DNA of 64,000 nt from Botryllus schlosseri (taxonomy: Eukaryota): positions 932,001 through 996,000 of the forward strand of contig CM119371.1 of the NCBI GenBank assembly GCA_051294905.1. The letters are read 5' to 3'. The translations under genes were made by a program, and so were the position numbers. Below, one piece after another: positions 24,657 to 59,225 of the stretch (position 1 is its first letter; each line of letters begins with the position of its first letter). Below the pieces are notes generated by a model. That model was not told the origin of the DNA. It searched no databases and was given only the letters and a program-made list of their open reading frames with translations.

Positions 24657-24784
24657 GTAAGTAAGCGTTACGTATGATACGGAATTTCCACCGGGTCCAC
24701 AACCACATGAACATGAAGAAGCAATGTTCCCCATGAGCATTTTGTAGTCTTGGTATCGTGAAATTAGGGTTAAATTAGCCTCAG

Positions 24785-35370: not shown

Positions 35371-35510
35371 ATATCTTCGTACACTACAATAAAGCAGAAT
35401 AATTTGCGATAGATTTATCAAAAGTAAAAATTTTCTACAATAGCTTAGTAGCGCAACATGTTGTCACTCGATTTCTTGTTTTTAATATTGTTGCCTAGGC
35501 TTACCATACG

Positions 35511-37324
35511 ATGAGTCAAGAGAATACAGGCAAGGCCTGGGGAGCGGAAGTCCGTCAATTCGTGCTAGCAGAAGACGAAGAATCTACTCTAAAACAGGAC
35601 TTGGAAAGAACAGCTGCTGAAGCGCTTATACTTGCAAATGAAGATTATAAACCACCAGATATTGAAGACCCTGAGAATCAATGGGAAGGGCTGAAACCTG
35701 AGATTTGGTTACCAATCTTCGAAAAATAGAAGAACGAAATAGGCAGTCTGGAAAAGAATCTATCACGTGATTCAGGTTTACCCTACAAGTTCACGCTTGA
35801 GCTCAAAGACGAGACAGTCGACCCATTCGTAGGAAAGGCGTATACCTTACGAAATGACGTACATACAAGGGGATTGGAAAAAGAACTGGACAGATATCTA
35901 CAATTGGGCGTTATTGAAGTGGGTAACTCTGAATGGAAAACCTCACCCTTTGTAGTGGCTCAAAAACAGAACAACAGACAGAAGGAGGAAGCATTGAAAC
36001 GGCACCTTGAACAAGGATTAACGGGGGAACCGGATCCGCCTATGAGAGTAGTTCAAGATTTCGTACCTCTCAACAACAATACTAAAGCTACAAATGTAGT
36101 ACCACCTCTGATATCTGATTTGATACATAAAGCATCGGGAAGGACGAAGAAAACGCTGATAGATCTCACCAAGGCATATTATCACGTGCAGGTGCCAGAA
36201 CAATATCGCAAATATCTGGGAATTGCAGTACGAAATAGAGAACTACGTTGGAAACGTTTAGCTATGGGCCTCAAAAATGCTGTGGCAATATTCCAGCAAT
36301 CGATGAATGAAGGATTGGTAGAACCAGTAACGCGAGAATACAGAAAGCTTGCAAAAACCCATGGATGGGGAGAAGAAGAGGAAAAAGCGTGCCCTATATT
36401 CGCATACATTGATGATATTCTACTCATAACAAAGACAGATGAACAGCATCTAGTATTACTAGATCTGGTGTTTGCTCAACTTGCTGAACTTCGACTCACC
36501 ATCAGTATCAATAAGTGCTTTGTGGGAAAGAAGAAAATAAATCTACTTGGCGTGTTGCTGGATGAAGATACGGTCAAAGTACAACCTGAAAGGATCAGGG
36601 CCTTGCGTGAAATGCCACCACCCAGGAATATATTCGAACTACGCGGATATATTGGAGCTTTAAGATATTTGGCAGCGCACTTTGAAGATATGGCGATGAT
36701 ACTGGCGTGTTTTGATAGCCAGACAGGATGTGTACCAGCGTCACAAAGCAGGCGAGTACCTGTTAAATGGACACGAAAATTGCTTGAACATTACACGAAA
36801 ATGCGTGATGTTCTACTACGACCGAAAACGCTCTTTCATATACGAATGGGGCTACCAATCTTCGTACAAACAGACGCAGCGTTGGACGGGATGGGTGCAG
36901 TTCTATACCAAACGGAGAACGCAGAGCCCATTCCCACAAACAGATATATCCCGTGGCTTACTACTCAAAGAAATGGAAACCTAATGAAAAAAGTTCATAC
37001 AGTGCGTGTAAAAAAGAAATTTTGGCGGTGGTACGAGCTTTCGAGAAATGGGGTTCTATACTTCTGGGTAGACCCGTATCAATACTTACGGACAAAGGAG
37101 TAATGGGAATATTGAAGAAAGTCACTGAGGGTAACAAACAAGCTTCAGATGACCCGCAAATGATGAGATGGGTAGCTGTGATCAGCGCCTACAATATCAG
37201 AAACGTGGTTCATATTTCTACATCAGAAATATTCACGGCGGATGCACTATCAAGAATGTTTGTAGAAAACACGGCAGTGGAAGAAGGTGACCCACTGGCC
37301 TGGATAGCTATCAAGAAAGGCGGA
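35511..37324 (+). pseudogene. pol: pol: reverse transcriptase and RNase H (Ty3/gypsy- or caulimovirid-like)
   Basis: RT motifs MRVVQDFVPLN, IDLTKAYYHV, LAMGLKNAVAIFQ, AYIDDILL, INKC and NLLG. RNase H motifs QTDAALDGMGAVL, AYYSKK, KEILAV, LTD and ADALSR. In-frame TAG at 35727 and a frameshift near 36950. Confidence 0.93.
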
Positions 37325-37822
37325 ATGACAAAAAATGAGAAGGAAAAGCTTAACAGAAAATTGATTAAACATCTCAGGCATACAGAATGTATGCTACAGA
37401 AGAAGGGTTGGCACCCTATGGCATGTGCTATGAAATATGGCTATGATGATCCGAAGGAATGGATTGAGAATGACAGAATAATGATCTCGGAGCATGGGAT
37501 TGCGGCAAAACAAGGACATACTAAAGGACAGAATCCGCAAATGCAGCAGTGGCTTAACCCGGAAGGGCTAACAACATTGTTTCATGCTACTCGAAAGAAC
37601 CGAGTATCCCCTATTATGGCAGAAGGCATAGCTAAAATGGGAAGACGTTTTGTACATCTATACACGGACGAAAGAGATGCGAAGCAAAAGGGAGAAGTCT
37701 GCATCTGCGTTGACATAGAAAGACTCAAACCGCAATCACTATGGTCCTTGAATGACGCGTCGAAAGTTGTACTATCATCGGACATAATTCCTAATGATTG
37801 TATATCTATTTCAGATGAATAG
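37325..37822 (+). CDS. Tpt1/KptA-like RNA 2'-phosphotransferase domain, in frame with RNase H
   Basis: Motifs in the correct order: KLIKHLRH...GW, NDRI, IAAKQGHT, LFHAT, GIAKMGRRFVHL, ICVD, VVLSSDIIPNDCI. Confidence 0.82.
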   Translation: MTKNEKEKLNRKLIKHLRHTECMLQKKGWHPMACAMKYGYDDPKEWIENDRIMISEHGIAAKQGHTKGQNPQMQQWLNPEGLTTLFHATRKNRVSPIMAEGIAKMGRRFVHLYTDERDAKQKGEVCICVDIERLKPQSLWSLNDASKVVLSSDIIPNDCISISDE

Positions 37823-39732
37823 GAATCTACCATATTACCCTAGTAAGTCGGCTAATGCTGCTATGCATCTGAGACTGAGGGAATATGGAATGATACGACA
37901 TGGATGGAATACGAAACCTACCGCATCAGGAAATAATTACGTGAACCGTCTGGCGCTTATTACTGTGTGGCCTCTACCCAGTAACTCACGGCTAAATCCA
38001 CTACAATTAAGTATAACCAATGAAATGCAAGGAAATGACTGAAGAAAACAAAGGCCGGGGTTTGAAGAAAGCTTGAGTGAAGTTTGGAGAATGTTTCGAT
38101 CCTATGAGATACATCCTAATGTGGATAAGCTATACGCTTACTTCACTGATGGAGAATACCGTAAAGCAGGGGTTCTCAACTTCCCTTGTATCGCGGGCCG
38201 CATTTTAACAGCAAAAGACGCTGCGGGCCGCAAAACATTATTGCCATGTAATTGTGGGCTACTATTAAATTTAGGCTACTGTAGCCTATTTACCAGTCAT
38301 ATACAGGCCGATATATTCCCCTTTAAACCCTTTCAACAGAGAACCGAACTCTCTGCTTCAAACCGGAAGAGAGCAAGTATAAAATTACGGTAACTTTTGC
38401 GTTAGAGAAGCCATTATCACATTGAGCTCTCAGTCATATATAAATTAGTTAGCTTTGTCAAGTTGGTGTTTTTCGCTGGTTCCCCTCCCACGTTGGCCCA
38501 GCCTGCATTTTCTCTATGTTCACTCTGACAAAATGCACCCAGATAATTAGATATGCAGAGTCTGTGGAGTCGGTGAATTCATCCAATGCTAGGATAAAGT
38601 AGTCTACGTGACTACGTGTTTCAGAACATGCGATAAAAGATCGACTGACATTGCTGTAACTCTTTTGGTCATGGTTGAATCAGACAACTGTAGTTTCGAC
38701 ATATGCCAGGTGCTGTTGTAATTGCTGCTAAGTTCCGGAAACATCAAATACTCGCAGAATTTTATTGAAAACACACTTTCTCTAGCAAATTTCTTGGGTT
38801 TAGCGATATTCCCAGCAATTTTGAACGATTTGTCTGCAACGTCGTCGGCAATCTTAAATGCCTCGAAATATGGATTACTGGGCTTGAAACCTAGCTAGCA
38901 ACGTTATTTATAAGATCAGGCGATCTGAATAACTCCAAACGTTATGCCATACGAAAACGGTTCTTCGACAAGTATGATACAACGGTCTTCTATTTATTTC
39001 TGAGAAAACAAATTCATTGTTCCACGCTGAGTCACAAACCCAGTTTTTGCCGTTTTATTGCCCATTCCGTGCTCTTGTTTCTGTTCAAACCATTCGCGGT
39101 GAGTAAAACACTCTTTAAAAAATGTACTACGTATAGCGGGATTGTCGTGAACCAGAGTCCAACCGAATACGGATTCAAAACAATAACAATCTAAACTCGA
39201 GCATATATCAAGAAACCAGAACACATCAAAAATGATTAATTAAACGAAAGAGAGATAAGAGAGCTAAGCAGCTAAATTAATATGTAACAATACCGTGTCA
39301 GTAATAATTGCGTTCATAATGAAAGATGTCGCGGGCCGCAAAATAAACGTCTGCGGGCCGCATGCGGCCCGCGGGCCGCGGGTTGAGAACCCCTGCCGTA
39401 AAGCATTGGACAATGGAGTATTGCCGATGAAACAAAAATATTTGCAGGGATATAAATACAAATTCGGTATACTCACTACTTGTGAGTTGGCGCCTAAAGG
39501 TTGGGAAAAGAGACACAGAATATCTGTTACACTACCTAGTGTACAGAGTAAATCCAAGTACCCTCGTAAGGAGGTCCTGAAAAATTGGAACAATACTGAA
39601 CAATGTCAGCCATTACATCTATGGCAATGGAATGGAAGCAAAAACTGGTTATGGGCGAGCAAACACTTTATACCTAACGAGTTGAGAGATGATAATGTGA
39701 TTTTCGTTGGGACTGCGACATTGATAGACTGA
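37815..39732 (+). pseudogene. ORF3 of the retroelement (~225 aa), possible divergent Tpt1-like paralogue, split by a hAT insertion
   Basis: Its ATG overlaps the pol end (gATGAATAG). One TGA at 38040. The frame rejoins across the 38167-39395 insert as ...FTDGEYRK|ALDNGVLPMKQKY... Confidence 0.65.
38167..39395. mobile_element. Non-autonomous hAT element inserted in ORF3
   Basis: TIRs CAGGGGTTCTCAAC / GTTGAGAACCCCTG, with an 8-bp TSD CCGTAAAG at 38159-38166 and 39396-39403. Confidence 0.93.
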
Positions 39733-39775
39733 TATTTGTGCAACTGAACATTTAGCACTGAATACAATACTAACA

Positions 39776-41040
39776 ATGGTATACGCTTTACAGATAATAG
39801 TTACAATACCTATGTCGGAAGTGAACATATCGAGTGTGACTGAAACAACCACGGTGGAAAAGAACAACATATTTGAAATATACATACCACCTGTGAACTC
39901 GGAATGGGCCACGTTCGCATTGCTTCTGTTGTCTATTGCTGGATTATCATGGTCATTTATTGCGTTCTGCTGGACGCGGAGGATCGAAAACGAATCAGAC
40001 GGATGAAAAACAACCTATAATCCCGAGCTCGGATCTACAATTGTTGGCATAGAAGACAAGGTACACTGGTTACAGACTGAAGTCTATGATGAATCGTTAC
40101 ACGGCAATAACTCCACTCATAAATGGATACCTATAGCCGGATGGGAGGAAGTCAAGTACAACATGACATCAGAATGCGACGAAAAAGATGACACTCTTTC
40201 GAATTTTCCAACTAGTACATATGGAATAGTAAGATCGAGATCTGTGAATTATGTGGAAAAATACTTCCATAATACAACAATATTCTCGTCCCATGACGAA
40301 TATATCTCCGAATGCAGAACAAACAATGCGACAACATACCGGAAAAGATCTGAGATATTGCCTGAATTGCATCCTCTAGTGTTTGATCGGAGCGTGATTT
40401 ATGTTCGAGACAATAAACCATACCAATGGCATCATTGGAATTGGGATCCGGTATCGAATAATGCGAGGTCATGGAATGAAGAAGATATTACAGTCCTCAA
40501 TTTGGTGGAATTCTTCACGGCATATCGCATACAAGTTTCATTGCTATTCCAAGAATTTGCCGAAGTTCATGCTAATTGTACGACTAAGAAAGAAGCTAGA
40601 GAAGCTAGTGCAATTTAAAGAGGGGAGAATTAGGTGGCAACTCAGCCGAATAAGTTGGTCATATTCAATCAATTATTCCTATGACAGTAGGCTAAAGTAC
40701 CTTTGTGGCAGGGATTTTTCGACAAATGGCATCACCATGCGCTGAAAATAAGGACAGAATGGACCATAGATTGTTCGTTCTATGGCAAAGAATCGTCCCG
40801 AATACGACCCGAGACACTAAAGGCCGATCCGTATCTAGTCATGACCTGGGGAAAAACAGATAAGCGATTTAGTAAAACGAGCCCTAAAAGAATGCATGAA
40901 GAAATGAAATGCATTACTGGAAGTGCGGCAATACCAAGCGGTGCGCATCTCGCATTCCCAATGTTGTCTCCAGCGGAGACAATTGAAGCGTAGCCATTTT
41001 GTCTCCTTGGCTACCTAGTCGTCGGAAATTTTACCTGGGC
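39776..41040 (+). pseudogene. env: env-like glycoprotein, 5' part (signal/anchor and surface subunit)
   Basis: ORFs 39776, 40163 and 40703 share one frame, and 40007-40162 is open after TGA 40004. Hydrophobic segment WATFALLLLSIAGLSWSFIAFCW, several NxS/T sequons, Trp/Cys-rich. Confidence 0.65.
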
Positions 41041-41639
41041 GCTTATGGGTTTACGCATTGTACCTTCATAAAACGGACTAATAATCAGGTACTGTTAGTT
41101 ATCAGCCGTTTATCTTTTGATATTGCGTTTATACTAAACCATTTATTCCTATAACTTACAGATTATAACATCGGGAATTCTGGGAATAGAATAAGAAGTA
41201 CGATAGAAACAGGATATAACTCAGATGTCAGAACAGCAGTTAGCTATCGAAGTAAGATTCACAACTCTGAACTAATATCACTGATCACTGGGTGATCCTT
41301 TTAAATTTTTCATCCATATGCATTTTCACATCCATGTACACTGTACAGGTGATTCCAAGATAATGTCGAGGGGGGTGGGGATCAGTCGGTCAGGTGTGCT
41401 GTGCTTATAATATAAGTTATAAGCTTATGGCTGTACAAAACGTTTGAAGGCAGTATCGAGTTTGTGAGGAGTTATAGCGAGGATGAGGAAATACAGTGTA
41501 AGCGGCGATATCCACTTACTTTTTATCTGTGAGATTTTAGCATTTATAAGGGAGACAATTTTTCATCTAACATTTTGCTTGATGCCAGCTTGACACTTTG
41601 AAAAATTTTCTATTTACAGATACATGAACAGATGATTGT

Positions 41640-41810
41640 ATTATGCATTATGCATTGCAGCTGAAGGAATGCTTAAGAACACCTGATTATTACTATGGTA
41701 TGTGTTCAGTTTCCCTTGGTAGCAATGATGCTCTAAAGAACGAATGGATTGGAGACATCAAGAGAGAAAATTGGAAGCCCTCAAAATATTAAAGGATCTG
41801 CTCCAAAGAA
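41640..41810 (+). pseudogene. THAP-domain fragment in a non-retroviral insert (~41050-43870) that interrupts env
   Basis: Hand translation gives LKNEWIGDIKRENWKPSKY*RICSK, the THAP W...R..WxP....ICS signature. Insert ends are not resolved. Confidence 0.6.
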
Positions 41811-42148
41811 TGGAAAGAGCTCTGAAACAATGGAATGAGCTAGAAAGATCCGCGGAATAGAGACTGACACTGAAAGAAACTGTGACATCGAGCAGACGAG
41901 CACTAGGCCAAGGTGGATGCCAGTTTAAGAAACTGCAACTGGTCGTTCGGCATGCTCCTATCTGTGTGTGTCTTGTTCAGATGAAAATATAATCTGACGA
42001 TTTTTGATTTATTTTCACCAGCGGCCTGACTTTTCCGTGCTTAGTAGCAATTTGGTCGAAAAGCTGTCACAGACCCAATGAAATCGTCTCGAGACCCTCA
42101 CTTAACTAGGGGGTGGAATTTCTACAGAAATCATTTATGTATAATTAT

Positions 42149-42979
42149 TAGGGCGGTTTTTTTTGACATGTCAAAATTGTAGCGTTAGGTCAAAATTTGT
42201 CAAAATTTTTCATCAAGTCAAAATTTTTTCGACATCTGCATTTCGTTTGTATCGTAGATTCTGCACTGTCGGTGTACATATCATTTGATATTTTAAAGCT
42301 TGTAGCCTATTTTATAGGACTACCGTTGTAAACGGCTAATTGTCTGCTCATTGTGAACCGTAAACGGTCAAATAAAACAAATAGGTAGACATGGTGTTAT
42401 GGTCAACATACCGCAATATCCTAACTGAAGAAAGACTTCTTGGACATTGCATCATTCTTACATTAGGAAGCGCACGATGAAAAATTGTGATGTAGACAAC
42501 ATTGTCAGAATAAAGCAACACGGTGTGTCACCAGCAGTGTACGCACAACTTGAGTGTTGTCAGCCAACAACTGCTGCTGTTAAACGTCCTTGGCAAGCTT
42601 CTTAGTAAGGACATGCACTTTCTACCCAAGAATGTAGGAAAGTATCTCTCGTTGTACTACAACATCTTTCAATTATTTCTACCATAATACATATTGTAAC
42701 CACTGGAATTCTTCATAGGGCCAGATTTCGTTAAAATATTGTTTTTTTCATGTAAAAAGTTGCCTGTTTCTAAGCCAAAAACGTTTTTTTTCAGGCCAAA
42801 CTGCGTCGTTAGGACAGTCAGTTCCAGCCGGAAATGAAGATTGAGTGGTACAATTTTAACATTATGTGGGAAAACACCTAATTTGCATATGTTAGGCCAA
42901 TATTTGGTCAAGATTCAGTTCAAAATTTTGATTTTTTAGGTCAAAATTTCCCTTTTTTTTAGGTAAAAAAAACGCCCCA
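42149..42979. mobile_element. MITE
   Basis: Ends TAGGGCGGTTTTTTT / AAAAAAACGCCCCA, with an 8-bp TSD ATAATTAT at 42141-42148 and 42980-42987. Confidence 0.75.
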
Positions 42980-44016
42980 ATAATTATACATACATACATC
43001 TAGCTAAAAATCGCCAAAAGAAAATACTATTGTAAAGAACTATTTCCATATATTTTAACAGTTCTACCATAAAAATCTTAAAACCTCGTATACCCTAACC
43101 TAAAGCCAGATTTCACCCAAAAGATTTCAATGTTGACAATCGGCAACTATATCAACTCCACCAGGAATTATTTCAGTAGCATCAATGTCAACATGTTTCT
43201 TTCTTGGCTAGTTCTGTTTTAAATGCAAGTGTTCAGCATTCCTGACACACAAGCAATTACATGAATTAGTTTTGTTGTTCTGTTTCTGATATTTTGGTTT
43301 TACAGGGTACCGTATTCAATGACAAGCCTATTTGGTCATCTCAATCTGCAAGAAACTAATTATCCTTCTTTATTTCGGTGGCACAAAAGACTGGCATATT
43401 TCCGGCAACGTTGAAAACTATTTATGAATTGCCCAGTTGAACCATACTCTTTCTATGTCCATATGTGGATCGCTGAAATAAAAATACCGTATATCACAAT
43501 GATCTCGTTGATATATTTCTGGTGCATAGAACCGTATAGTCATAGTACAATTACAGTTTAATAACCGTGGCAAAATCATGGACAGGGCAGAAGCAGTTTA
43601 GGTTTAGATGACTTCTTTGAGACATCGAGAGCAAACTTGATGTGTTCCTGCACTCGCAAGCAAACATCACCGAAGGCGATTAGCATCAGTGCTACTCAAG
43701 ACTGCTTCACGTTGAGTTTGATGTAGTCAGAAGCTAATCGTTGAAATATTCGCGTCGGAATGTCGTTGCAATGCAGTATCCCTTGAAGTTACACACGAGT
43801 CTTCGCCGTTTTAGATCCATCTATGGATACTGAAGTCGCAAATGCAATCCATGGCGTCATTCAAGGCTGACATACCTATTAGAAAGGGTATACTATAGTT
43901 CATTAATATGGTCTGTGTTAGTTTTGTGATAAAACATACTTATTCCAGACGAAAACCCCTCGAAAAGCGTAAAACACGGAGAATCCCAGTAGTTCACCAT
44001 AAGCACCAGTGCGCAA

Positions 44017-46573
44017 CAGTGATGAGCGGATGTTGGATTTTGAGAATCCGAATCCGTCCGACAGTTTTGGTGTCTGCGGAACTATCCATCCGACTCCGGA
44101 TAATCTCATCCAACTATCCGAATTTATCCACAAATCTCTTACAAGAATCCGAAAAATCCTTATCGAATAATGATATCGCAGAATATCAATTGTAAAGCTG
44201 AGCTTAGTTACAGTTCTGCACTAGAAGATCACGAATTGTATCTATGGAATGAACGAAAATTGGAATTTTAATTATAGGAAAGTTAACGCAAAGAAACAAA
44301 GCTACTAATTTGAAGTAAGTGTGCGAATGAAAGTGGAATCTCGATCAAAAGCAAATGAAAAATGACAAAGATTATTAGGCCATGGCCATATGTAACAATC
44401 AGGCATTTAACCATATTACCAAATATATATCAAGAAGTAATAGTAGCAAGTTGTGACCATGGAATTTTACAATCGGGAGATGGTCAATATTGGATGCGGA
44501 TAAGCCACATTTTACCGACAAGTGCTGGAAGGCGTGAAGGCCTGTTTAGAAGCAACTTGCTGATGCTTATAATGCCTTTGGTCAATCAGTTCAAAGCTTC
44601 GAGCATAACGCTTATAGTCGAGTCACACGAAATGTCAATAATAGCACCATCCTGAATGTCCCTCAATCTGTCCAAATTTCCTCTCCAGTAGCTGGTCAGT
44701 AGTTGTCTTGCCAACTTGTTTATTGGAAGAGAAGAAACTCATCTTCAACTGTGCTGCATCCTTGGCCTTTCGGATATGGTTTGTAAGGTTCATTGTACCA
44801 CTTGAAAACGTGTGGTGTTTACTTGAACATAGTAATTGTAGCATTCAGCAGAGCCAGTGTCCCATAAATCCGGATGCAATCCCTCCACACTTCACTATTG
44901 CTGTGCTATCTCTCAAGACGTCGACTTTCTTCAATCCATTATAATGGAGAAACGAAACTCCGACAGTACGGAATCATAGCTCAAATTGACACTCAGACGA
45001 GGAGTTTGACAACATTCAAGGTCTTCAAATAATGCAATACACTAGTTGATAGAGCTCCACTCAAGAGACATGACGCATCACTAACGCACTGATCGACACT
45101 CCTTGGGATTGACTTTCAAACTGTTTGCATGGTCTCTCGTTGAAATCATATCGAAAAGCACCATAATCACGACAAAGTCTTTTTTCACAATTCTTCAACT
45201 GAAATCAAATTTACTTAAACAGACCATTGCCTGACAAAAAAAAACTAACAGCTTTTTCTTGTATGGCTCAGTGGTTCTGGATGATTGATTCCGTCAATCA
45301 TATTGGAGAAAATATAGCAGCTGAAGGAAGGGAAGAGTAAGCAGGAGAGTTGAGTAGGTTTGCTTTCGTTGTAACGGTATATAGGAATTATGGATTTTAT
45401 AGCCTTGTTATATGTTATTAGTTTGCCTTAATATGACATGCATGTATCTTGAATGATTTCAAACAGGCTGGTAGGCTACTGTACCGTCAAGGCATCATTA
45501 TATTAATTATCATATATTTTATCTGTGTATATATCTTCTTACATAATGTTCTATATAATTTTCTGACTACAGAAAGTTACTTGTACATGTTTGTATGCAT
45601 ATTCTTATTTGAGTGACCGGGCTGCAAGTGTGTGAATAGCTGTTAACTCGACGTGCTAAGCTGACGAGAAGTCCAAGTCCACACGGGGAATACCTTCTCA
45701 CGGAACGGAGTTATTACATTGTTAAACGTCATCAGGATATATTCCGTTATGATCATGAACTGCTGGAAGACTCATGGTAGCTAAAGATTGTGCCGTAGCA
45801 CAAGCACCGCGGTATAGTGTTGATCGAAAGGGTATCATACAACTACTGTGGCAGCATGAAAATCATTCATGCTACAAGTACGCAAAGAGGGATTTGACTT
45901 ACCGGTATATTAATCTACAGAAGACTGCCACAACAACAACTTTGAAGATTCTAGAAATTGCATGCCCTATTGTGACATTCATCAGCAATGGGCTCAAAAA
46001 CTACATGTGAAGGCGGGAAGCAAACGCAGTTCTGTGACTGATGTTGAAACTATACCTTCAATTTTGCGAACTTCAGACACTGCTCTGCGAGCATACCGTA
46101 CTGATGATGACCATGTCAGGCGAGCTCATGTCCAATCATACCATCGTTTATCAGTTCACATATTATAAATCGTTAGATTGGCAAGTATGGTATGCTTGAT
46201 GTGTTTTAGCTAATAAATCTGATAACATCGCTGATCTTATAGTATTGTCTACTCTTGAATGGTTAGAATGGTAGTGGTAATAGTTTATCTATATTATTTT
46301 GGACTCTTGACAAACATTTTTAGACTGCTACCTGTCATATCGTAAGGTGTCAGCTGTCTGTTTTTGGTTATTGAATTGATGACTTTTTTTATAGGCCTGT
46401 AATCAAATCTCACATCTGGTTACAACTATCCGGAAATATCCTATCAAAAGTTACAACTATCCGACAATATCCGAAAAAATATTTGTGATAATATCCGAGT
46501 CCTATCCGACTGCCACAAAATCGTCTAATATCCGGTCCGAATGCTATCCGAGTCCGTCCGATGCTCATCACTG
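44017..46573 (-). mobile_element. Deleted hAT element (BED-finger remnant) inserted in env
   Basis: TIRs CAGTGATGAGC / GCTCATCACTG, with an 8-bp TSD GTGCGCAA at 44009-44016 and 46574-46581. SSGTMNLTNHI remnant at ~44770-44840 on the minus strand. Related to 49561-51867 in the opposite orientation. Confidence 0.88.
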
Positions 46574-46581
46574 GTGCGCAA

Positions 46582-48510: not shown

Positions 48511-48833
48511 AACAGATTGTAGCATACAATAGTTAAAATGGAATCCATAACGACGACTCATGTAAAACAAATTTGTGTGACATTGAAATGAATCTGAAAC
48601 AACACTACATGATATTCATTGGTAATCAAGGAAGGATATTAGCGCCGATTTTGTCGTATTTCACATGCCATGGTACATGAGATCTATGGATATTCCAGGA
48701 AGGTGTCTGAACAGATATCGCCTGATGATGCAATAAGCACATGCTACCCATTCGGTAACAGAATCTGGTACTGACAAGAGGTATGGCCAGAGCAGTTGGA
48801 AAGAACGAGTCCCCATCAATCATGAAGTAGATT

Positions 48834-49493
48834 TTGACGAGTAATGCATCACCAAAGGGAGTCATAACGCCTGCGAGACCAGCAAATAGTCGGCCGTCGA
48901 CAAGTGCAGAAGAAGATCAGGCTATCGAAACTGTGGACAAATCGCAATTATCGCAGAGAGCTCGAAAAAGTTACAATCGAATGCTTCGAGAAAAGTCTAA
49001 TTCATCGATCAAAATGTCCAAAGAAACGAAGGCGGCGTTCGAAAGATATAAGCGTATGAAGATACGAAATGATCCTGAACATTGGCAGGATGTCAGAATG
49101 TGTGAAATTTTAATGCATATGACGGAGCCTAATTACCAACAACTTTTCAAAAAAACGCGAATGATGAGACACAATGAACAAAAGGCATTGAAGGAGGAAA
49201 CGAAGCAAGAATTGCCCAAAGGAGTTATGCTTGCTAGCAAAGAAATACTGGGAGGAAATAACATCCCGAAAGGTGCTTTGCAATCTGACGAACGAATTCT
49301 AACGCCTGGAAATGCTATTTCCATTGGTAAAAAGACGAAAAGAGAGCTGCGAGCAGCATTGAAGAGAACACGAGTCTGTGTTTTAGCCGCAACGCACTGC
49401 GATTTGTGCCACGAGGAAGACGAAAACTGCATATTACATCAGACTATAGACTGCAATAGCACAAGGATTAAAGGCCGAAAGACAAAGATTTAA
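48834..49493 (+). CDS. Accessory ORF of the retroelement: basic, helical, with a Cys/His cluster (HCDLCH...C..H...C)
   Basis: 219 open codons, co-oriented and downstream of env. No recognised family, and no integrase HHCC or DDE motifs. Confidence 0.5.
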   Translation: MTSNASPKGVITPARPANSRPSTSAEEDQAIETVDKSQLSQRARKSYNRMLREKSNSSIKMSKETKAAFERYKRMKIRNDPEHWQDVRMCEILMHMTEPNYQQLFKKTRMMRHNEQKALKEETKQELPKGVMLASKEILGGNNIPKGALQSDERILTPGNAISIGKKTKRELRAALKRTRVCVLAATHCDLCHEEDENCILHQTIDCNSTRIKGRKTKI

Positions 49494-49560
49494 ACTAATA
49501 TGTTCAATTAGTTTCCCCGGCTTTTAGGGTGATTAGCGTGCGCCAAACGCTGCTATGAAC

Positions 49561-51867
49561 CAGTGATGAGCACCGGAGCGGAGTCGGAGTGGATTCGGAG
49601 CGGAGTTTTGCCAATTTTGTGATACCCGGAGTGGAGTCGGAGTTTACAACAGAAATTTTTCCGGAGTTTTACGGAGTATTGTGAGTTTTGCCCCCGATAT
49701 CTTTCGATAGCTTTGACCAGAAGACACTATTGATTACAAACCAAAACACAGACAGTTGACACCTTGTAAAGTTGTAATATGACTGGTAACATGCAAAAAT
49801 GATTGACAAGTGCATAAAAATCAGCCATCTGCACTGCAATTGGGGACTGGAGAGTAACCTAGTGATCTAGCAAGGCATTTCCGCTGAGCAGTGTCTGTAG
49901 TTCACAAACTTGAAGACACCCAATATCGTTCGCAGCGCATCATTTTCTCCCTGCAATGAGATGCAGTCTTTGAATCCACTGCTGAATGTCACCATATTAT
50001 GAGATAAGATCTCCAGAATCTTCCACGTTGCTGTCATTGCAGTCTTCTATAGTCACATCATATTTCTCCTTGCGTATTTGTTTCGTAACTAATTTTCATG
50101 CTGCCCCAGTAATTGTGCGAAACATTTACAATCAGCCACATACAGCGGGGCTTCCCTATGGTACAGCCTTTGGCTACCCTGATTCTTCCAGCAAGTTGAT
50201 GATCATAACGGAATATATCCCATTATCCTGATGACATTCAATATAGTAATAGGTCCATTTTGTGAAAATGTATTCCCAACGTTGGTATCAGTTGTAAGAT
50301 AACATCCGATACCACTTTTGTGATAACTTTTCGCAACTTTCATCGTACTTGCAATTTGCAGTGAGAGATATCGATAATAAGTGTTACATCAATATTACCT
50401 TTATATCTGTGAGAAATATACATACAACCAGCAAGTATCTGGATGGAAACAATAACAATAACTTATGCAATGTGTTACATGATTTAATGACATTGCGATG
50501 AATTTTCGCTAGTAAGATCCGTTCACAGAGGCATACCAGCATCTAAGCCCGTTTTAAAGATTTCAACAATACATAAATCACTAAGGTAAGCTGATCTTAC
50601 CCTGTAAAAACAGAATATTCCGAATTTCTGAACAGCCACACTAAATAACTACAACCGTCTGCTTTGCTCTGCTCGCATCAACTCAACTACGCTTCCTTCA
50701 ATATTGATTGACGTAGTCAGTCATCCAGAACTCTTCTGAATTTTCGTCATGTAATGTTTGGTTTGATTGAGAAGTGACTTTGATGTGATGTGAAAAATCA
50801 GCACCGCAATCAAGTTTCTGCTGCTGGTCTGTCTCAGACTCCAAATTCCAGATATCATGTATCAGCTTCAAAATTGGAAGTCACTAGTCATTTAGTCAAC
50901 TTCAAGGAGCGTCGATCGGTGCGTCAGTGATGCATCATGTATGTTTAGTGCAGTGCAGTTCCATCAACTGTCTCATGGCGATGCAGAACTTAATTTACTG
51001 AAACCTGTGATGTAATCGTCGATTTCAGTGGTGTTAGTGGTAGTTAGTTCGAACTGACTGGTCTTCCTTCGTCGTTTTAATATAATGGCTGAAGCACCGT
51101 CGACGTCAAGTGGGTTACTCACTAAGACGCAGAAAAAGAGTGACGTGTGGAAGGATTTCACTCTGATGCTGCATGATAATAACGGCCAGTATACTGGGTT
51201 TGCGAGATGTCAAAATTGCAATGTTCAGCTAAAGCATCACAAGTTGACAAGTGGTACGTCGCATCTTCGAAGACATATCGAAGCTTGTAAGAAGAATTGA
51301 TTGCAGTTGAAATGCAAGTAAGCGAGTAATCAAAGGAGAAGGTGGTCATGGGGAACACTGATCGCCGGGTGGAGAATACCGAAGAAGTGCCGGTTTGCCG
51401 TGGTGTTGTGCAGAAGACGTTTTGCCATCCAGATTTACGGTGAGACGTAAGTTCGATGAGGAGGCTTCATCTTTGAAGCAGAAGCTGTCAGAGGAACTAA
51501 GAGTTGCTATCAAGTGTTATGGGCTGGCTGGCATCACCACAGATATGTGGACCGATCTAAAGGGTCGCAGTTCTATTAGCTTGACTGTCCATTTTGTTGG
51601 AGAGAACTTGACTCTCAGAAGTAATGTTGCGACTGTTCGGCAATTCACGGATACTAAAAAAACTGGTATGAATATCAGACAGGCTATCGAAAACATCGAT
51701 TGGGATTCTTCGACAATGGTCTGAATATATTTCGGGGACTGGACAAGATTCTTCGGGTTATCTCGGAGTCTGGGATTGAGATCCCCGGAGTCGGAGGGAT
51801 TTTGCCTCAGAGACCAAAGTTGTCGGAGGGACTCGGAGTCTCGAAAAGCAGACTCCGCTCATCACTG
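49561..51867 (+). mobile_element. Internally deleted hAT element with BED finger and partial transposase
   Basis: TIRs CAGTGATGAGC / GCTCATCACTG, with an 8-bp TSD CTATGAAC at 49553-49560 and 51868-51875. BED finger KSDVWKDF...CQNC...GTSHLRRH (51085-51300) and catalytic TTDMWTD...SLTVHF (51395-51724). Confidence 0.92.
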
Positions 51868-52399
51868 CTATGAACCTCCGGTCGACATTCCCATCGACAG
51901 ACCTGTTCGAGAAGTGTACATATGTAATAACTTGTGGGGATTGGGTGGTCTTTATAGATAGGTCTAACTAGGTAGGAACATCTCATTGCCAACGGAGAAG
52001 GTTTTGCCTGCTGGAAAGGGGCTCAATTGGAAACCTGTTGTGCATAATGCATGGGCAATAACTATTGATATTTCCAATTGATTAGTAACAACATTTGGTT
52101 GTTTGGATAAAATTCGAAGTGGGGAATAAGGTGCGAATGGCGAGAGTTGGACTCCGTGTCCTTAAACGGCGTATCCCGACATTATGACTGGTGATGTTGT
52201 CGTCAAGACGACAGAAACCAGACATGGATGAAGGGCTGAATGCTGTGATGGGACGACTTGAGAAAAGCTTGAACTTGACACATCTTAGGACAAGAAACTG
52301 GCTTATGGCCATGTTTGGATCAATCTGTCAGCCTTGTTCCTCCTAGGTCTAAGTCAGTAAATGAGGGGTCTGAGCAACAGGTCATCGCGGCGATTAGGG

Positions 52400-55300
52400 T
52401 TTATGCTGTTTTGTGGTGTATGTCAATTGATGCATTTGTTGGTAATTTATTGTGTAGCGATCTGAATTTTGAAATTGAGCTGCATACACGTTAATTGTGT
52501 TGTGTCGCTTTCCAGACGATATGCCTAAGCGAAGTAGGGGGAGATAAATTAGAGAAAATGAACAATTTTGATTCTTGTTGGAAAATATTGCCGTTCTAAA
52601 TAAATTAATGGATAATTTGGATGGCAGTAAGAAAATCAAACATGATTCGGAAAGAAGAATAAAGAATTTTGTACCAATTACATAAGACGGGTATATTCGC
52701 TATCAAATGTTGAGACTTAAATGGAAAACGTTCTGGAATTGTTAAAAACAACCAGAATGTTTTGCGGGGGCAATGAGAACGTTTGGGCGGAAATGAAATT
52801 GATATTTATGTATGTTTGGTTAAGAAGGGAGAAAAAGTCAAAGCAATAAAAGATTGATCGAAAAATACTGATACAAAGTAATTCATGGCGAGAATTCGTG
52901 AATAAATAATAAATAAATAAACGCCGGCGAATAGTCTGGAGAGTCGAGGCAGCACAATAGCATGTGTGCAGACGTTGATGAGACATGAATTAACATTTGT
53001 GATGTGTAATGAGTTAATGATACATGAATTAACATTTGTGATGAGTAATGAAACGTGAATTAATATTTTGGGATATGAATTGATAATTGTGACGGTTGAT
53101 TTGTCAGTATAGTAACTGTACAATGTGTGTATTTGACACGATAACATGATAATGTATTACGATACTAAACAGGAAATACTTGCCTTGATGTATCCGAAAC
53201 ATAAATGGGGTCATACATACCAGTGTAACATGTGCCTTTGTATAGAACGAATTCATGAATTTAATGTGGCAATGCAGAGCGATTTGCTTCTGACACAATC
53301 ATAAGTAATGTGCCTACAATATGCAGTAATTAGTAAGCATACGACCCGGTTGGAATACACCTTATGCTGAAGTATGTTTATTGTTGGAGTAGTCATGTTA
53401 TGATTGTGAAATAAAGTGTCTATGATATATGGTAATAAGCATGTAACCCGGTTGGAATATACCTTTTGCTAAACACCGTATATTATTGATGTAATTGTTG
53501 AAGTAATTGTACTGTAGTTGCGAAGTAAAGTGCCTATTAGGGTTGTCCAAAATTTGGAAAATCTTACAAATCCTCCGTTGTAATGTCTTATTCTATAGAT
53601 TATTGATAAAAAACGACACTGAGCCAGAAAGAAGCTCACAGGAAGGCCGTTAAGATTTCGTGCAAAGCGTTTGAAAGTAGCTGCCGTAGAATGGGCGTGC
53701 CACCGACCATAGAACGGCGAGAAGACTAGCAATCACGAAACCACGGCTCTGGATTGGCTAATCGGCTATGCTTCAATGACCACGACAGCAGCAGCTTGCT
53801 GTGTAGGTGATCAAGGAGTCTGCTACCGGCGGCGATTCTGAAAGCCCATTGTATGTAGGTTGACAGATAATGATTTAGGATTGATTCAGGGTATGTTGAG
53901 GTACGAAATACATGATGAACAAACAACAGCTGCTTCACGAAAACGTCTAAAGCATGACCGCTTTATTATGAAGGGAACCGCCGTAGCCTGCATGCCTTGT
54001 TTTCAACGAGAGAAAGCATAGGCGCTTATGCAAGTAGCGACGGATTCCTAGTTTCAGAAAGATCTCCTTATTGAATACAAAGATAAAGCTTAACAATGAC
54101 ACTACAACTTGTGTGATCTTATTGGGCTCAGGTTGTAGTACATGGTTGAAGTTTTGAAAGCTCTAAGGATCGGCTGAATCAGCGGGTTATGCTTGGCACT
54201 TGTCAGATGCTTGCATCAAAATGTATTCACTTGCAAGTGTTGTCAAAGTCCTTGATGATGACGCAGAAAAGAGGTGTAAAAGTAAGCACATACTATGCTG
54301 GACATGATATGGCAAAGTCCTTAATGTCGCGCAGAAAAGGGGTGTAAAAGTAGGCACAGACAATGCTGCATAGTGCATAGCACCCAGCATAGTTTGTACA
54401 TCATATCAAGCATAGTCTGTGCTTGCATTTAGACATCGTTTCTGCGGCATCATTAGGGACTTTGAAAACACTTACAAGTGAATTCAATTTGCTGTAAACA
54501 TCTGACAAGTGCCAAGCCTAAGCGACGTTTGATTCAGCCGATCCCTAGAGCATTGAAAACTTCAATTATGTACTGCAACCTGAGCCCAATAAGATCACAC
54601 AAATTGTAGTGTCATTGTTAAGGTTTATCTTTGTATTCAATAATGATATAGCCTTTCTGAAAGTAGGAGTCCGTCGCTATTTGCATAAGCGCCCATGCTT
54701 TCCCTCGTTGAAAACAAGGCATATAGGCTACAGCGGTTTCCTTCACAATAAAGCGGTCACGCTTTAGACGTTTTTGTGAAGCAGCTGTTGTTGTTCATCA
54801 TGTATTTCGTACCTCAGCATACCCTGAATCAATCCTAAATCAATATCTGTCAACCTACATACAATGCGCTTTCAGAATCGCCGCCGGTAGCAGACTCCTT
54901 GATCACCTACACAGCAAGCTGCTGCTGTCGTGGTCATTGAAGCATAGCCGATTAGCCAATCAAGAGCCGTGGTTTCGTGATTGCTAGTCTTCTCGCCGTT
55001 CTATGGTCGGTGGCACGCCCATTCTTCGGCAGCTACTTTCAAACGCTTTGCACGAAATCATAACAGTCTTCCTGTGAGCTTCTTTCAGGCTCAGTGTCGT
55101 TTTTTATCACTAATCTATAGAATAAGACATTACAACGGAGGATTCGTAAGATTTTCCAAATTATGGACAACCCTAGTGCCTATGATATGCGGTAATGAGC
55201 ATGGAACCCGGTTGGAACATACCTTTTGCTTAATGCCGTATATTATTGATGTAATTGTGAAGTAAAGAGTCTATGATATGCAGTAATAAGCATGCGACCC

Positions 55301-55940
55301 GGTTGGAACATACCTTTTGCTGAATTCTGTATATTATTGATGTAATTGTGAAGTAAAGAGTCTATGATATGCAATAATAAGCATGCGACCCGGTTGGAAC
55401 ACACCTTATGCTGAAGCCTGTGTATTGTTGATGTAATTGTGTATTAATTGTTGAGTAATTGTGCTGTAATTGAGACGTAAACGCTGATTGGAGTATTTGG
55501 TTGTATTAAGGTGGATTGGCTTGATTGGATACTGATTAGCTACTAATTAGTAATAAATTCTGGTTGAAAGCTGTATGAGTTACGTCTGAAAAGTAACCAT
55601 ACGACGGAATTAAAGCTGTGTGTGAGCTACGCCTGAAAGGTAGCTACACACGACGGAAGAATTGGACACTACTTGTCATCACTACTTGTCGTATACTGGC
55701 ATCCCTGCCTGACAATTTACAAGTGATACTGCATACTACAAAGGAACTGGACACTATATTATCACAAATTGTTGCACACTGGCATCTTTGCCTGACAATT
55801 TACAAGTGATACGAAAGATATAGGTGACCCGTATGGAGGGCATTGTGTCTTCACAATCTATACGCTGTCATAGCTATATAAACAGGTGTAAACCCTGTGT
55901 AATTGGAGTTCCCACCGAGATAGAGAGAGATATAGAGAGA
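52400..55940 (+). promoter_or_regulatory. Long non-coding LTR-like/intergenic region of the retroelement with tandem repeats
   Basis: AATAAA cluster at ~52900-52921. Five ~90-nt units with core ACCCGGTTGGAA(C/T)A(C/T)ACCTT at ~53340, 53445, 55205, 55297 and 55387. Paired direct repeats at 55570-55660 and 55695-55812. Confidence 0.55.
53538..55175. mobile_element. Foldback hAT-type element with ~670-bp inverted arms
   Basis: Ends TAGGGTTGTCCA / TGGACAACCCTA, with an 8-bp TSD GTGCCTAT at 53530-53537 and 55176-55183. Mirror ORFs at 53469(-) and 54981(+). Confidence 0.93.
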
Positions 55941-55942
55941 AC

Positions 55943-58803
55943 ATGGACATTGGGCCAGAGTCCAAGTTAAAAAAATTGTGGAGGCGGACCAGATCTGCAG
56001 ATTCAAAAACCACTCGATCTCTGAGTAGCTCTCGTAGGACATCTCGCGAACATTCTGCTGACAAAGGTCATGTGTCGGAAGGAGAGGTCACGGTTTCTGG
56101 TGATGAAACTACCAGTGTTTATACTGTACGGCAGGGAAGGTCTGCGTCACGATCGGGCATGTTCAGCAGAAGTCGTACCCCTTCGAAAACTCGAGCAAAG
56201 AGCGTGGAGCGCATTGAAAAATTGAAAGATACAAGACAACAGATAAAAATAACTCAACAACGTTATAACGAGGTTGTTAAAAAACATTCGGACTTGATTA
56301 AAAAGGCGAAAACGGACGCTGATCTTCAAACAAATGGCGGGGAAGATATTGCCTCACGTCGAAAAAGAAATAAACAGGGCTTACAAGTCCATCTCTGAAA
56401 TACGGAAGGAGTTGGATGAGCTGAAGAAAATACATAAACGCCGGTTGAAAGGTATTGACCCCAAAGAACTAGCTAGATCATTGGAAACCGCTACAGTTAT
56501 GGGTGAACAAATAGCTCATGCTAGCATTCTTCGAAATACCTATGGGACACACCCAAGCTTCAGTATGACTCCCAAAACGCCACCGTCGTACCAAGAATCG
56601 ATGGAAGGAGATAACAGAAGTCAGGCGCCGTCTGCACCTGATGATAATGAGCTAGGATATCCCATTGTCCGCGAAGCCAACACTACAAAACAACAGTCGG
56701 TAGGAACATCAGTGGATACGGTGAACAGGGGGCATGTAAATATGCTAATTTCGGGAGAACCTGAACCGGGCGAGCCGGAATGGAAAGAATATGAAGAAAA
56801 TCAGTCCGAGTGGAGGGATAGAAACCCTGAACGTATACTATACCCTACCAGAACTAGGCGTATATTGGGAAGACAGCTTAATATTGGTAAAAGAGGCGCG
56901 CCGGGATATACACCAGGCATTGACCACGAGATAGTGGCCGAATGGGAAGATCCCTATGACGAAGACCCCATATTATATTCCACGAGAGACAAAAAAGAAG
57001 AATTAATATACAAATTGCAGACAGCAATAACAGGGATAGATGAGTTTCAAAAGGACTAGGAAAAGGAACGTAATGAACTGTGGATTGCCCATAAGGAAGA
57101 AAGGAGGCAAACCCAGAATTATCAGGAAGCCGATGACAGGGCGGAATATCTTGAGGGTCGAATTAAAGATTTACTCAACGAATTATCACAAATGCGAGTA
57201 AAGTTGCAACAATCAAAGAATTATGAGAACCAGGCAATATATCTTGCGTCACGATGGGAAGATGAATATCGCGGTGTTTGTTCGGATTTGAAACGAAATA
57301 AGAAAGGAAAAATGACTTACAAGCTAACCTAAAGCTGTCCGAATCGCGTGTGGCTGAGCAAGCAGCGGAGTTACTTGACAGATTGGAAGATACTGGACGT
57401 TCGCATGTACGTCTACCCTCATCGTTAGGTCCGGACAACAGCGATGTTCGCTCGACGCCTAATCGCGTCCACAATACAGCAGGTAGAAAAGAAATTCCAT
57501 GCGAAGACGAGTCACGACATAATCACGAATACAATATAGAAGGCAGAGATGAGGTTACACGCCGTGGTGCGTCACAACAACGCAACCCGAACTGTCCAGA
57601 AGGCAGGAATGAGTTTATGCGCGGCGGTGCGTCGCTACTACGCAACCCAGCCTATAATACAGCAGGCAGAGACGAGTTTCAACACGACGGTTGGTCACAA
57701 CAACGCAATCCTGGCTTTACTATACTTGGTGAAGAAGAATCTTACGAGCTTACCAGAGATCAGCTGAAATACCTAACACCAGGCAGACGTCAACACATGT
57801 TGCCGGATACGGATAAATTCAAAGAACTCGTACAACGCCTAGACGATCCTGAAGACAAACCCATAGTTACGTGGATATTAAAACAAATCAAGAACACCAA
57901 CACGGGCAGTGGCCATGAACCAAGATATAAATTATTCTACCAAGCTCTGCGTAGTAAACTCGAAAAGGCGGGCAGAATAGAACAGACGCTTAATTTATCT
58001 CGCGTCTACAATGCCAATGAACGGGACACTTGGAGAGATATGATGGATTCCCTTATACAATGGTATCCTAACAGTCGCACGGACAAAGAGGAAGTCATTG
58101 AGAATTTCGCTGAACGCTTCAGTTGGAAACAAATGCCAGGACCCCAACTTTACGAAGTTTTGAGAAAATTGTCAATGAATACGCATGAAGTGATAATGGA
58201 TTCTCCATTGGGCATGAAGTTATACAGAAAAATTAAAGCTGTACTACCCTTTATGTACAAAGGCACGCTACGCACTCAACCTTTAAATTCACGGATGGAT
58301 TGGAAAGAGTTTGGGTCCATGATGCAAGCATGGTGGCAAGATGAACAAAAAGATCGGGCTGCAAAACGGGCACGCGGATATATGACGGAAAGGCAAGATT
58401 TCACCGTGAGACGTTCTGCATACGAAAATGATGATAACAGGGGACGAGCCTATAATATTGGAACTCCAGTCGCAGCGCGAACTAGGGGAGCACAAAGCAA
58501 CAGACGTCCTTTGAACAGGCCGAACGCGTCAAGTGTACCAGCGGCAAAATTGCGCACTCTGAACCGAAACAACAGGCCGGAGTCGGCACCTCCAGTAATG
58601 ACACGTCAAGAAACACTGCAGCCCACCAGAAATAGGACAACTTCAACATTAGTAGGCAACCATAGTGCACCACGAACTGAACATAATCCGCAACCAATTT
58701 CAAGCTGGCCACAAGCTTTGAATGCTGAAGAAGCCAGGCGCATCTACGATGACGGGGGAGAAAAAGACCAATATCTGGTATTACCCAACATATTTGAACC
58801 ATT
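55943..58803 (+). pseudogene. gag: gag-like ORF (frameshifted): RS-rich N-terminus, coiled coils, late domains, helical capsid-like region, Arg-rich C-terminus
   Basis: Consecutive ORFs 55943, 56334 and 57350. PPSY at 56580-56591 and PSAP at 56628-56639. TWRDMMDSLIQWYP resembles the retrotransposon gag TW..L...F...F motif. Cut at ~58804 by a MITE. Confidence 0.7.
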
Positions 58804-58804
58804 G

Positions 58805-59225
58805 GGGTTATATACTGAGGATTTGTCCTCTTTTTTGACTTTTTTGAAAGTGTCCTCGGAGGACGACCTTTTGTCTCCTTTTTTGAGATTTTGTCCTCTT
58901 TTTGAAAATTTAGGCAGATTTAGAGCAAATTGCGAGTGATATGCCGCATATTAGCACAGAAGTGAAGCTCCGGCGGGTATTTCGGAGTGAAAAACGGTGA
59001 TTTTAGCTCTGAGCGAAAAGATGACATTTTTTTAAGTCATCCACCTGCCAATGTAGAGTAAAAAACGTTATTTTGAGCTCTGAGCAGAAGTGATGACCTT
59101 TTTTTAGTCAGCCGATCACAAAGTGGGAAAAATTAACCGGTTTTTCAGAATTTTACTCCGGTTTTGCAAGTTGCAAATTTCTGAAAAAGTGTCCTCTTTT
59201 TTTATTTCCAAAATAGGGTAAGCCT
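58805..59225. mobile_element. MITE (GTCCTCTTTTT-rich) truncating gag
   Basis: Similar to ~8490-8745 (TTTGTCCTCTTTTTTGAAAATTT...GCAAGT...GTCCTCTTTT). The last ~45 aa of ORF 57350 are read from it. Confidence 0.65.

Follow-up and report, generated by a model that had tools for sequence, protein, structure and literature searches.

The window analyzed here is a 64,000-nt stretch of Botryllus schlosseri DNA (contig CM119371.1 of the 495-Mb assembly GCA_051294905.1, positions 932,001-996,000; all coordinates below are window positions unless stated otherwise). It contains a retrovirus-like element that extends from about 35507 to 58817 and is truncated at both ends, as judged by where homology to sister copies elsewhere in the genome begins and stops. 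On the + strand, the genes are arranged in the order pol (encoding reverse transcriptase [RT], RNase H, and a Tpt1-like domain), ORF3, env, an accessory open reading frame (ORF), a promoter/repeat region, and gag, in agreement with a preliminary description of this DNA that had proposed an enveloped reverse-transcribing virus lacking an integrase. Relative to the sister copies, the element is interrupted by four foreign blocks, namely one palindrome and three transposons, each of which has an 8-bp target-site duplication (TSD), so that the TSD-bounded inserts of that description are real. Furthermore, the window copy lacks 1,777 bp, which comprise the last 171 gag codons including the CCHC knuckle, the entire protease, and the G-patch.

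As had been reported, the element starts just upstream of the RT. What remains there is the pol linker between the G-patch and the RT (35507..35729, +); homology to the C3, C1, and C2 sister copies sets in at about 35507, next to unrelated flanking DNA, and in an uninterrupted paralog 422 extra pol codons lie upstream of this truncation point. The RT frame (35730..37103, +; 457 aa) has a YIDD motif and clade-specific insertions and matches Pfam RVT_1 (E 1.2e-19). It is followed, in a frame that is shifted relative to that of the RT in this copy, by RNase H and a C-terminal Tpt1/KptA-like domain (36809..37822, +; RT_RNaseH, 3e-15; PTS_2-RNA, 1.8e-9, above the curated cut-off). ORF3 (37788..39732, +) is split by insert 1, and tblastn recovers it at 90% identity in two pieces (37788-38168 and 39397-39729). 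Comparison with the C3 copy identified insert 1 (38169..39395) as a small transposon with terminal inverted repeats (TIRs; CAGGGGTTCTCAAC) and the TSD CCGTAAAG. The env gene is likewise in two parts. The N-terminal part (39728..40934, +) has several frame breaks and is 83% identical to residues 40-354 of the paralog protein, with five stops. The C-terminal part (46656..48510, +) is 90% identical to residues 380-962, with four stops, and carries an RSKR site, a helical region, a glycine-rich stretch, an anchor, and a tail. Between them lies insert 2 (40935..46655), a 5.7-kb transposon with the TSD GGCAATAC and inverted similarity to insert 3.

Downstream of env, the basic accessory ORF, acc (48759..49493, +), is 91% identical by tblastn to a 244-aa paralog ORF. 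Insert 3 (49562..51864) is a hAT-like transposon with the TSD CTATGAAC and the TIR CAGTGATGAGC, in which a BED-finger-like ORF can be recognized by eye but has no Pfam match. The inverted similarities around the C-terminal block of env are explained by inserts 2 and 3, two related transposons that point in opposite directions. The region downstream of acc resumes at 51865..53339 (+), with 89% identity to C3, and leads into tandem repeats of 91-102 bp (53303..55481) that are split into two arrays (53303-53529 and 55175-55481) by the 1.6-kb palindrome (53538-55175), whose arms are 89% alike and each contain a mirror-image ORF of about 90 aa. Next come a conserved cis-motif, TGATTGGAGTATTTGGTTGTATTAA (55482..55509, +), that is common to both of the related families described below, and a segment from a TATA box (TATATAAAC) to the first gag ATG (55875..55945, +), with the box 68 nt ahead of the ATG at 55943. 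Finally, gag (55892..58817, +) survives as four broken frames. The preliminary description had let the element end with the end of gag; instead, the gene is cut at codon 976 of 1147, without its CCHC knuckle, and 58817 is the 3' truncation point. Similarly, what had been described as one long noncoding region consists of the hAT-like insert of about 2.3 kb and the palindrome, at a place where two ORFs, n200 and n151, are found in two of the four sister copies examined (C3 and C2 have both; the window and C1 copies have neither). Because three transposons with 8-bp TSDs lie inside it and it has diverged by about 5-6% from its sisters, the window copy is old and genuinely genomic.

A search of the genome with the RT protein returned four more close copies (C3, C1, C2, and C12) along with older fragments. 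The sequences of fragments C14, C15, and C41 and of the middle of the C12 copy were left unread. The window copy is 93-95% identical to its sisters, which are 97-99% identical to one another. For annotation we used copy A at the C3 locus (C3-A), in which all long frames are open. Its gag encodes 1147 aa with a single CCHC knuckle at 984-997. Its pol encodes 1195 aa in the -1 frame, opening 42 nt ahead of the gag stop; no canonical slippery heptamer was seen by eye in the gag/pol overlap. The pol domains are a protease with DTG at 116 (RVP, 4.8e-5), a G-patch at 367-410 (E 5.7e-13), an RT with YIDD, RNase H, and a Tpt1-like domain at 1087-1181. ORF3 (235 aa) was matched to no family by Pfam, Atlas, or hhalign, and the basic acc protein (244 aa) had no Pfam match below E 0.08. 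Between acc and gag are n200 and n151, ORFs of 200 and 151 aa that are conserved in a related family. On 20 kb of sequence from the C3 locus, no Rfam model matched at E <= 0.1.

The env product of C3-A (962 aa) has the features of an envelope glycoprotein, which supports the earlier characterization insofar as the element is env-bearing. Specifically, it has an N-terminal hydrophobic signal, 17 N-X-S/T sequons, and one furin-type RSKR at 574; further on, a long helical region and a glycine-rich stretch precede the membrane anchor (about 860-893), behind which 70 aa form a tail. Where translation starts is ambiguous: the env ATG had been placed 44 nt past the ORF3 stop, and the first ATG of the long env frame in the uninterrupted copy is at 175 nt. 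In Atlas, the clusters closest to the env protein are those of viral class III (gB/G-type) fusion glycoproteins, with recognition so low that we treat the match as a lead only. A word-based search found no env homologues at E <= 0.01, and a single-sequence AlphaFold2 model had a mean pLDDT of 32.9, which leaves the Atlas lead as the basis for the class.

Since gag runs into pol in C1 and in fragment B of the C3 locus (C3-B), and since every copy keeps env, acc, the promoter region, and gag together in one block, the map closes on itself: gag with its CCHC knuckle, pol, ORF3, env, acc, n200/n151, the tandem repeats, the 25-nt motif, the TATA box, and gag again. The unit measures 15,312 bp in C3-A, the sole copy that holds all of it, and is thus larger than the 12-13 kb first estimated. 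The C2 copy is about 840 bp longer in the repeat region. Separately, the RT of C2 contains a 13.4-kb insertion (15313-28761 in concatenated coordinates) made up of two 6.25-kb inverted arms that are 99.8% identical.

The absence of an integrase and of a tyrosine recombinase, as originally claimed, was borne out by each search that we made. When all stop-to-stop ORFs of 60 aa or more in 35000-59500 were scanned (110 over the six frames), Pfam detected RVT_1, RT_RNaseH(_2), and PTS_2-RNA only, with no integrase (rve), tyrosine recombinase, DDE, or Caulimoviridae movement protein domain, and no Phage_integrase-type match of the kind that is a hallmark of DIRS elements. In the uninterrupted pol, ORF3, env, acc, and gag proteins, Pfam likewise found no integrase (rve, Integrase_H2C2), recombinase, transposase, or movement protein. 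When ORF3, acc, n200, and n151 were aligned by hhalign with a DDE profile and with an integrase profile built from 19 gypsy integrase regions, all probabilities were below 1%. A DDE protein from the related families found nothing by tblastn in the window, C3, C1, or C2 loci.

Self-comparison agreed that there is no pair of long terminal repeats (LTRs) at the flanks, and it revealed none in any of the five copies, including C3-A, which spans one unit plus a 62-bp overlap. Outside the element, at distances of 3.5 kb and 0.6 kb, the window does contain direct repeats (31495-31969 and 59375-60766) that are 83-90% identical with a 0.9-kb indel. They are probably copies of a dispersed repeat, being too diverged and too distant to serve as LTRs of the element.

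Evidence on how these copies arose comes from their ends. With positions numbered from the start of the gag frame in the 15,312-bp unit, the window copy runs from 4702 to 2925, C2 from 4115 to 1952, C12 from 5400 to 2281, C1 from 2883 via the gag/pol border to 2265 with one internal deletion, and C3-A from 3461 to 3523. The order pol...env...gag is therefore found in all five near-complete copies and gag-pol-env in none. No two of the ten end points coincide, all copies have unrelated flanks, and no TSD was found in any of the four copies examined; junctions are blunt, carry filler, or show microhomology. The proposed circular permutation, for which a search for other copies had been suggested as a check, is thus a property of the whole set, and relatives with the structure LTR-gag-pol(integrase)-env-LTR and TSDs, which would have spoken against it, were not found. 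Furthermore, all ten ends fall within 3,448 bp of the circle, between about gag codon 650 and the start of the RT. We simulated five random openings with the gap sizes seen in the copies, requiring that at least half of the RT query be kept; an arc of 3,448 bp or less was obtained in 185 of 200,000 trials (p about 0.001).

The C3 locus adds a second line of evidence. There, copy A lies inverted within fragment B, and A and B are 100% identical where they overlap; where they join, 3 bp are duplicated and 8 bp of filler are present. C3-B represents 1.2 units, head to tail, of a 4.1-kb sub-circle made up of the upstream region, gag, and the first 256 nt of pol; its ends overlap by 825 bp, and the sub-circle is joined at an 11-of-12-nt homology. 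Both pieces are longer than their units, and such pieces can arise only from a circular or concatemeric template. Perfectly identical inverted duplications, here of 2.75 and 1.65 kb, are also a pattern that long-read assemblers can make, which raises the question of whether the permutation as a whole is an assembly artefact or a later segmental rearrangement of colinear insertions. We consider this very improbable, and it is disfavored for four of the five loci: the copies are spread over four chromosomes with sharp and different junctions, the window copy holds three transposons with intact TSDs, and contigs from an independent DNA run span the acc-to-gag stretch examined in C2.

It could also be argued that the locus represents two truncated tandem LTR proviruses that share one LTR and have lost the integrase by deletion. 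Such a structure would be expected to read pol, env, repeat/promoter, gag, and the enhancer-like 91-bp repeats and TATA box upstream of gag are what a shared LTR might contribute. Yet the same truncated arrangement would be needed at five of five independent loci, no copy contains a second LTR even where the piece exceeds one unit, and the uninterrupted pol ends in the Tpt1-like domain, leaving no room for an integrase. In addition, no direct or inverted terminal repeat of 13 nt or more is present in an 18-kb full-length relative (an Fb-type element, introduced below). We therefore regard tandem proviruses as an improbable explanation.

Given the permuted ends and the missing enzymes, we lean toward the view that the five loci arose when circular or concatemeric DNA of a pararetrovirus-like element was captured by host end-joining. 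Under this scenario, the window would hold an old, decayed insertion of a retrovirus-like element of about 15 kb without an integration enzyme of its own. As in pararetroviruses, its replicative DNA would have been a circle, a concatemer, or a linear form ending near the gag/pol border, and it would have entered the germ line by host end-joining instead of through an integrase. Each near-complete copy is a linear piece of the circle, opened at a different point within an arc of 3.4 kb, and this preferred opening region may correspond to a discontinuity or an end of the reverse-transcribed DNA.

Plant endogenous Caulimoviridae and integrated hepadnavirus DNA provide precedents for such a process. 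Both lack an integrase, both occur as permuted or truncated pieces of a circular map that entered chromosomes through host recombination, and end points of pararetrovirus insertions cluster near a particular region of the genome. The element shares with these viruses the lack of an integrase and the permuted copies with variable junctions. It differs in its animal host, a gag-frameshift-pol arrangement, an env gene, and a Tpt1-like domain, and it has no movement or terminal-protein domain.

Its RT also falls outside the Caulimoviridae, for which a single badnavirus was compared. A word-indexed search with the RT returned gypsy-type pols with an integrase at 21-27% identity plus one badnavirus, and the best gypsy pol matches were 26-28% identical. 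An exhaustive search of 1.84 billion representatives added four closer proteins at 33-37% identity, three of which carry a Tpt1 domain. In a quick maximum-likelihood tree of 33 rows (22 outside proteins picked for known domain content and 11 members or nearest relatives of the clade, with other matches omitted), all Tpt1-bearing RTs and two shorter relatives formed a clade with a long stem (SH-aLRT 99) that fell among gypsy-type RTs when the badnavirus was used as the root. Judged from sequence and against this limited reference set, the RT belongs to a Ty3/gypsy-related clade that is new and rare and has the Tpt1-like domain as its hallmark. A charged insertion in the RT had been likened to that of caulimovirids. 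While the insertion is present, along with a second one of roughly 18 aa that lies between motifs B and C, both are specific to the clade and absent from the one badnavirus compared (P0023), so that, with the separate position in the tree, the likeness itself did not hold.

The same placement bears on whether this could be a DIRS-like element, which moves through a circular intermediate and uses a tyrosine recombinase. A circular map without LTRs or TSDs is what one would expect of such an element. However, neither a tyrosine recombinase nor a methyltransferase domain is encoded in any frame, the end points are variable rather than at a fixed recombination site, and the RT groups with the Ty3/gypsy type. 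We give this possibility hardly any weight.

A feature that went unnoticed in the preliminary description is the Tpt1-like domain, which occupies the usual integrase position in pol. It scores 38.4 and 35.2 bits against PF01885 (cut-off 26) and matches Tpt1 chains in the PDB (E 2.8e-6). The catalytic tetrad of Tpt1 is Arg-His-Arg-Arg. In the domain of one related family (Fa-type), the R-H pair and the fourth Arg are kept and the third Arg is replaced by Ala; the window type shares this Ala and keeps the fourth Arg, and its N-lobe is unaligned. Conservation of the domain between families with about 40% identity shows that it is under selection, although its chemistry may differ from the removal of tRNA 2'-phosphate. 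It could act on RNA or DNA ends during replication. In one of the outside relatives, P0032 (an unnamed ENA protein of 967 aa), RT, RNase H, and Tpt1 domains are followed by an endonuclease/exonuclease/phosphatase (EEP) domain (E 4.7e-7), which is either another integration-type module or the product of a chimeric gene model. We found no report of a Tpt1-RT fusion, of a retroelement with an IS1595-type DDE gene, or of an env-bearing pararetrovirus of animals in our literature search, an absence that is no proof.

Two abundant families in the same genome, Fa-type and Fb-type, share with the window type gag, n200/n151, the 25-nt motif, and pol, which is 40% identical with the Tpt1-like domain included. 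They differ from the window type, which has env instead, in carrying an IS1595-type DDE gene (E 9e-13 and 9.5e-17 in the ORFs found), in having fixed ends marked by the terminal motif CACTAGTTCC, and in their size of 18 to at least 25-30 kb. Fb-type elements are about 18 kb long (for example, C7:24860005-24878119) and are present in more than 20 full-length copies with fixed ends, the left end being common to at least 17 copies and the right end to more than 30. The four right ends that could be read have the sequence ...TATAC-T(G/T)-CA(C/T)TAGTTCC. Upstream of gag-pol, the one copy scanned encodes a DDE_Tnp_IS1595 protein (E 9.5e-17) together with the products of captured, host-like genes that the window type lacks: an IAP (three BIR domains plus a RING domain), a ubiquitin-conjugating E2, and a leucine-rich repeat protein. 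Fa-type elements extend over at least 25-30 kb (C3:600001-625757), with gag, pol, a DDE ORF of 330 aa, and then ORFs of 872 and 1049 aa; their left end was left unread. Their right end lies at the same query position in most of 40 scored matches, and at about 40 scored places (of 2,873 candidates) their last 1,334 bp stand alone as a separate unit; these may be solo terminal units or a nonautonomous family. Both families seem to be undescribed in the literature that we found.

The most conserved DNA of the clade lies upstream of gag. Between three families whose RTs are about 47% identical, 25-32 nt at TGATTGGAGTATTTGGTTGTATTAA are identical, and a 20-nt core, GGAGTATTTGGTTGTATTAA (55490-55509), is perfect in three families whose proteins are 30-47% identical. 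This core occurs 522 times in the genome, compared with 0 for a reversed control, and two rearrangement junctions (that of C3-B and the internal deletion of C1) fall on it. It could be a primer-binding site, a promoter element (it has ATTGG boxes), or a strand-transfer signal. No tRNA genes were detected with ARAGORN, either in the window or in 24 further loci. The Fb-type ends have signals of their own: a TATA-like box precedes the fixed right end by 12-17 nt, and AATAAA lies about 40 nt in from the left end. Only if joined would they form a unit consisting of a promoter and a short R region, an arrangement that would fit circular intermediates throughout the clade. Fb-type termini gave no significant alignment with the spacer between acc and n200.

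These relatives make it necessary to consider that the window type is a defective, DDE-less offshoot of the fixed-end elements, mobilized by their transposase in trans, and that the five loci are aberrant by-products of an intracellular retrotransposon, either dead-end circles that were captured or intermediates that broke. The shared pol, gag, n200/n151, and motif are compatible with such an origin, as are the DDE_Tnp_IS1595 ORFs and fixed ends of the relatives and the low copy number of the window type (five near-complete copies plus fragments). Against it, the unit of the window type has no exact match to CACTAGTTCC and a single match with one mismatch, which equals chance expectation, and none of its copies has fixed ends. 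Moreover, an env gene and a paralog with all of its long frames open are unlike what is seen in a parasitic derivative. We view this origin as unlikely, though still worth serious attention, and the difference between it and capture of pararetrovirus-like DNA is mainly one of life style.

Several observations weigh against such a capture. The related families have fixed ends in more than 20 copies together with a DDE gene, so these high-copy relatives are not accidental fossils, and the clade as a whole is an integrating mobile element of which the window type might be a defective derivative. Misassembly could account for the perfectly identical inverted pieces at the C3 locus. The clustering of end points comes from only five copies, and selection against inserts able to make Gag-Pol could yield the same pattern with no special DNA end involved. 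An episomal life cycle for the window type would fit the permuted copies, yet neither circular or extrachromosomal DNA nor a transcript was seen in the assembled genome and contigs. One bulk RNA run, of which about 6% was read against the acc-to-gag stretch of C2, gave a loose-ended spike of about 30 nt only and is uninformative on expression. A second RNA run, under another organism label, gave no match, and no RNA run was listed as containing the element. Lastly, the RT tree was drawn with one caulimovirid and without Retroviridae, Belpaoviridae, or DIRS references.

In the interpretation that we find most economical, the clade would replicate through circular or concatemeric DNA, which the families with a DDE gene would cut at a fixed site and integrate. 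Without that gene, the window type would have reached chromosomes only by host end-joining, leaving behind permuted and truncated fossils that lack TSDs and whose ends are concentrated in one region. A more far-reaching proposal is that these elements belong to an undescribed lineage of animal viruses that descended from Ty3/gypsy stock. This lineage would have lost its integrase and LTRs and adopted circular DNA; an env-bearing branch, represented by the window type, would be a pararetrovirus that enters the germ line only by accident, sister branches would have regained chromosomal integration by recruiting an IS1595-type DDE enzyme with a fixed cleavage site on the circle, and the Tpt1-like enzyme would be a shared new replication function. 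We offer this lineage tentatively, as a possibility that falls short of being probable.

Compared with other retroelements, the element combines features that are usually found apart. With env-carrying Ty3/gypsy elements (Metaviridae, errantivirus-like) it shares a CCHC Gag, a DTG protease, an RT and RNase H of the Ty3/gypsy type (PF00078/PF17917/PF17919; RVT_1, RT_RNaseH, and RT_RNaseH_2, within the limited references), and an env gene past pol. In the abstract of PMC13524379, class III (gB/G-type) is one of two env types reported, and the Atlas lead for the present env matches that type; the text of that paper makes no mention of Tpt1, phosphotransferase, DDE, circular, or "without integrase." Unlike Metaviridae, the element has no integrase, no LTRs, and no TSDs of 4-6 bp, and it has a Tpt1-like domain, a G-patch, permuted insertions, and an RT on a long branch. 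Relative to Retroviridae, the gag, protease, RT, RNase H, and env functions are present and the integrase and LTRs are absent. In betaretroviruses, the protease is followed by a G-patch. This arrangement is shared by the element, which differs from them in lacking an integrase and LTRs and in having an RT of the Ty3/gypsy type.

To our knowledge, all known animal retroelements with gag and pol integrate with an enzyme of their own, except hepadnaviruses and nackednaviruses. If our interpretation is correct, the window type would be the first animal counterpart of the endogenous pararetroviruses of plants, with gag, protease, RT, RNase H, and env, no integrase or LTRs, and only permuted insertions made by end-joining. 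More generally, integration modules would appear to be interchangeable in the clade: the window type has none, its relatives have an IS1595-type DDE enzyme, and one outside relative may have an EEP nuclease. The exchange of integration strategies among retroviruses, LTR retrotransposons, and pararetroviruses could then be tested within one genome. As a separate observation, 39-64% of the sampled 31-mers of the pol-env stretch are present in sequencing runs under three other organism labels; near-identical copies thus occur outside the species label of the window, and they may reflect close relatives or horizontal spread.

Beyond the element, the window contains an NLR-type host gene, seen as a 522-aa open frame at 20377-21942 (-) that encodes NACHT and NOD2 winged-helix domains. 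This NACHT/NOD2-type gene, together with the transposon content, suggests an invertebrate animal host. The interval 24000-26000 is GC rich (0.50) and includes a strongly C-skewed tandem-repeat block (24809-25830), which is adjoined by an ORF with a ZSWIM3 N-terminal domain (24295-24657).

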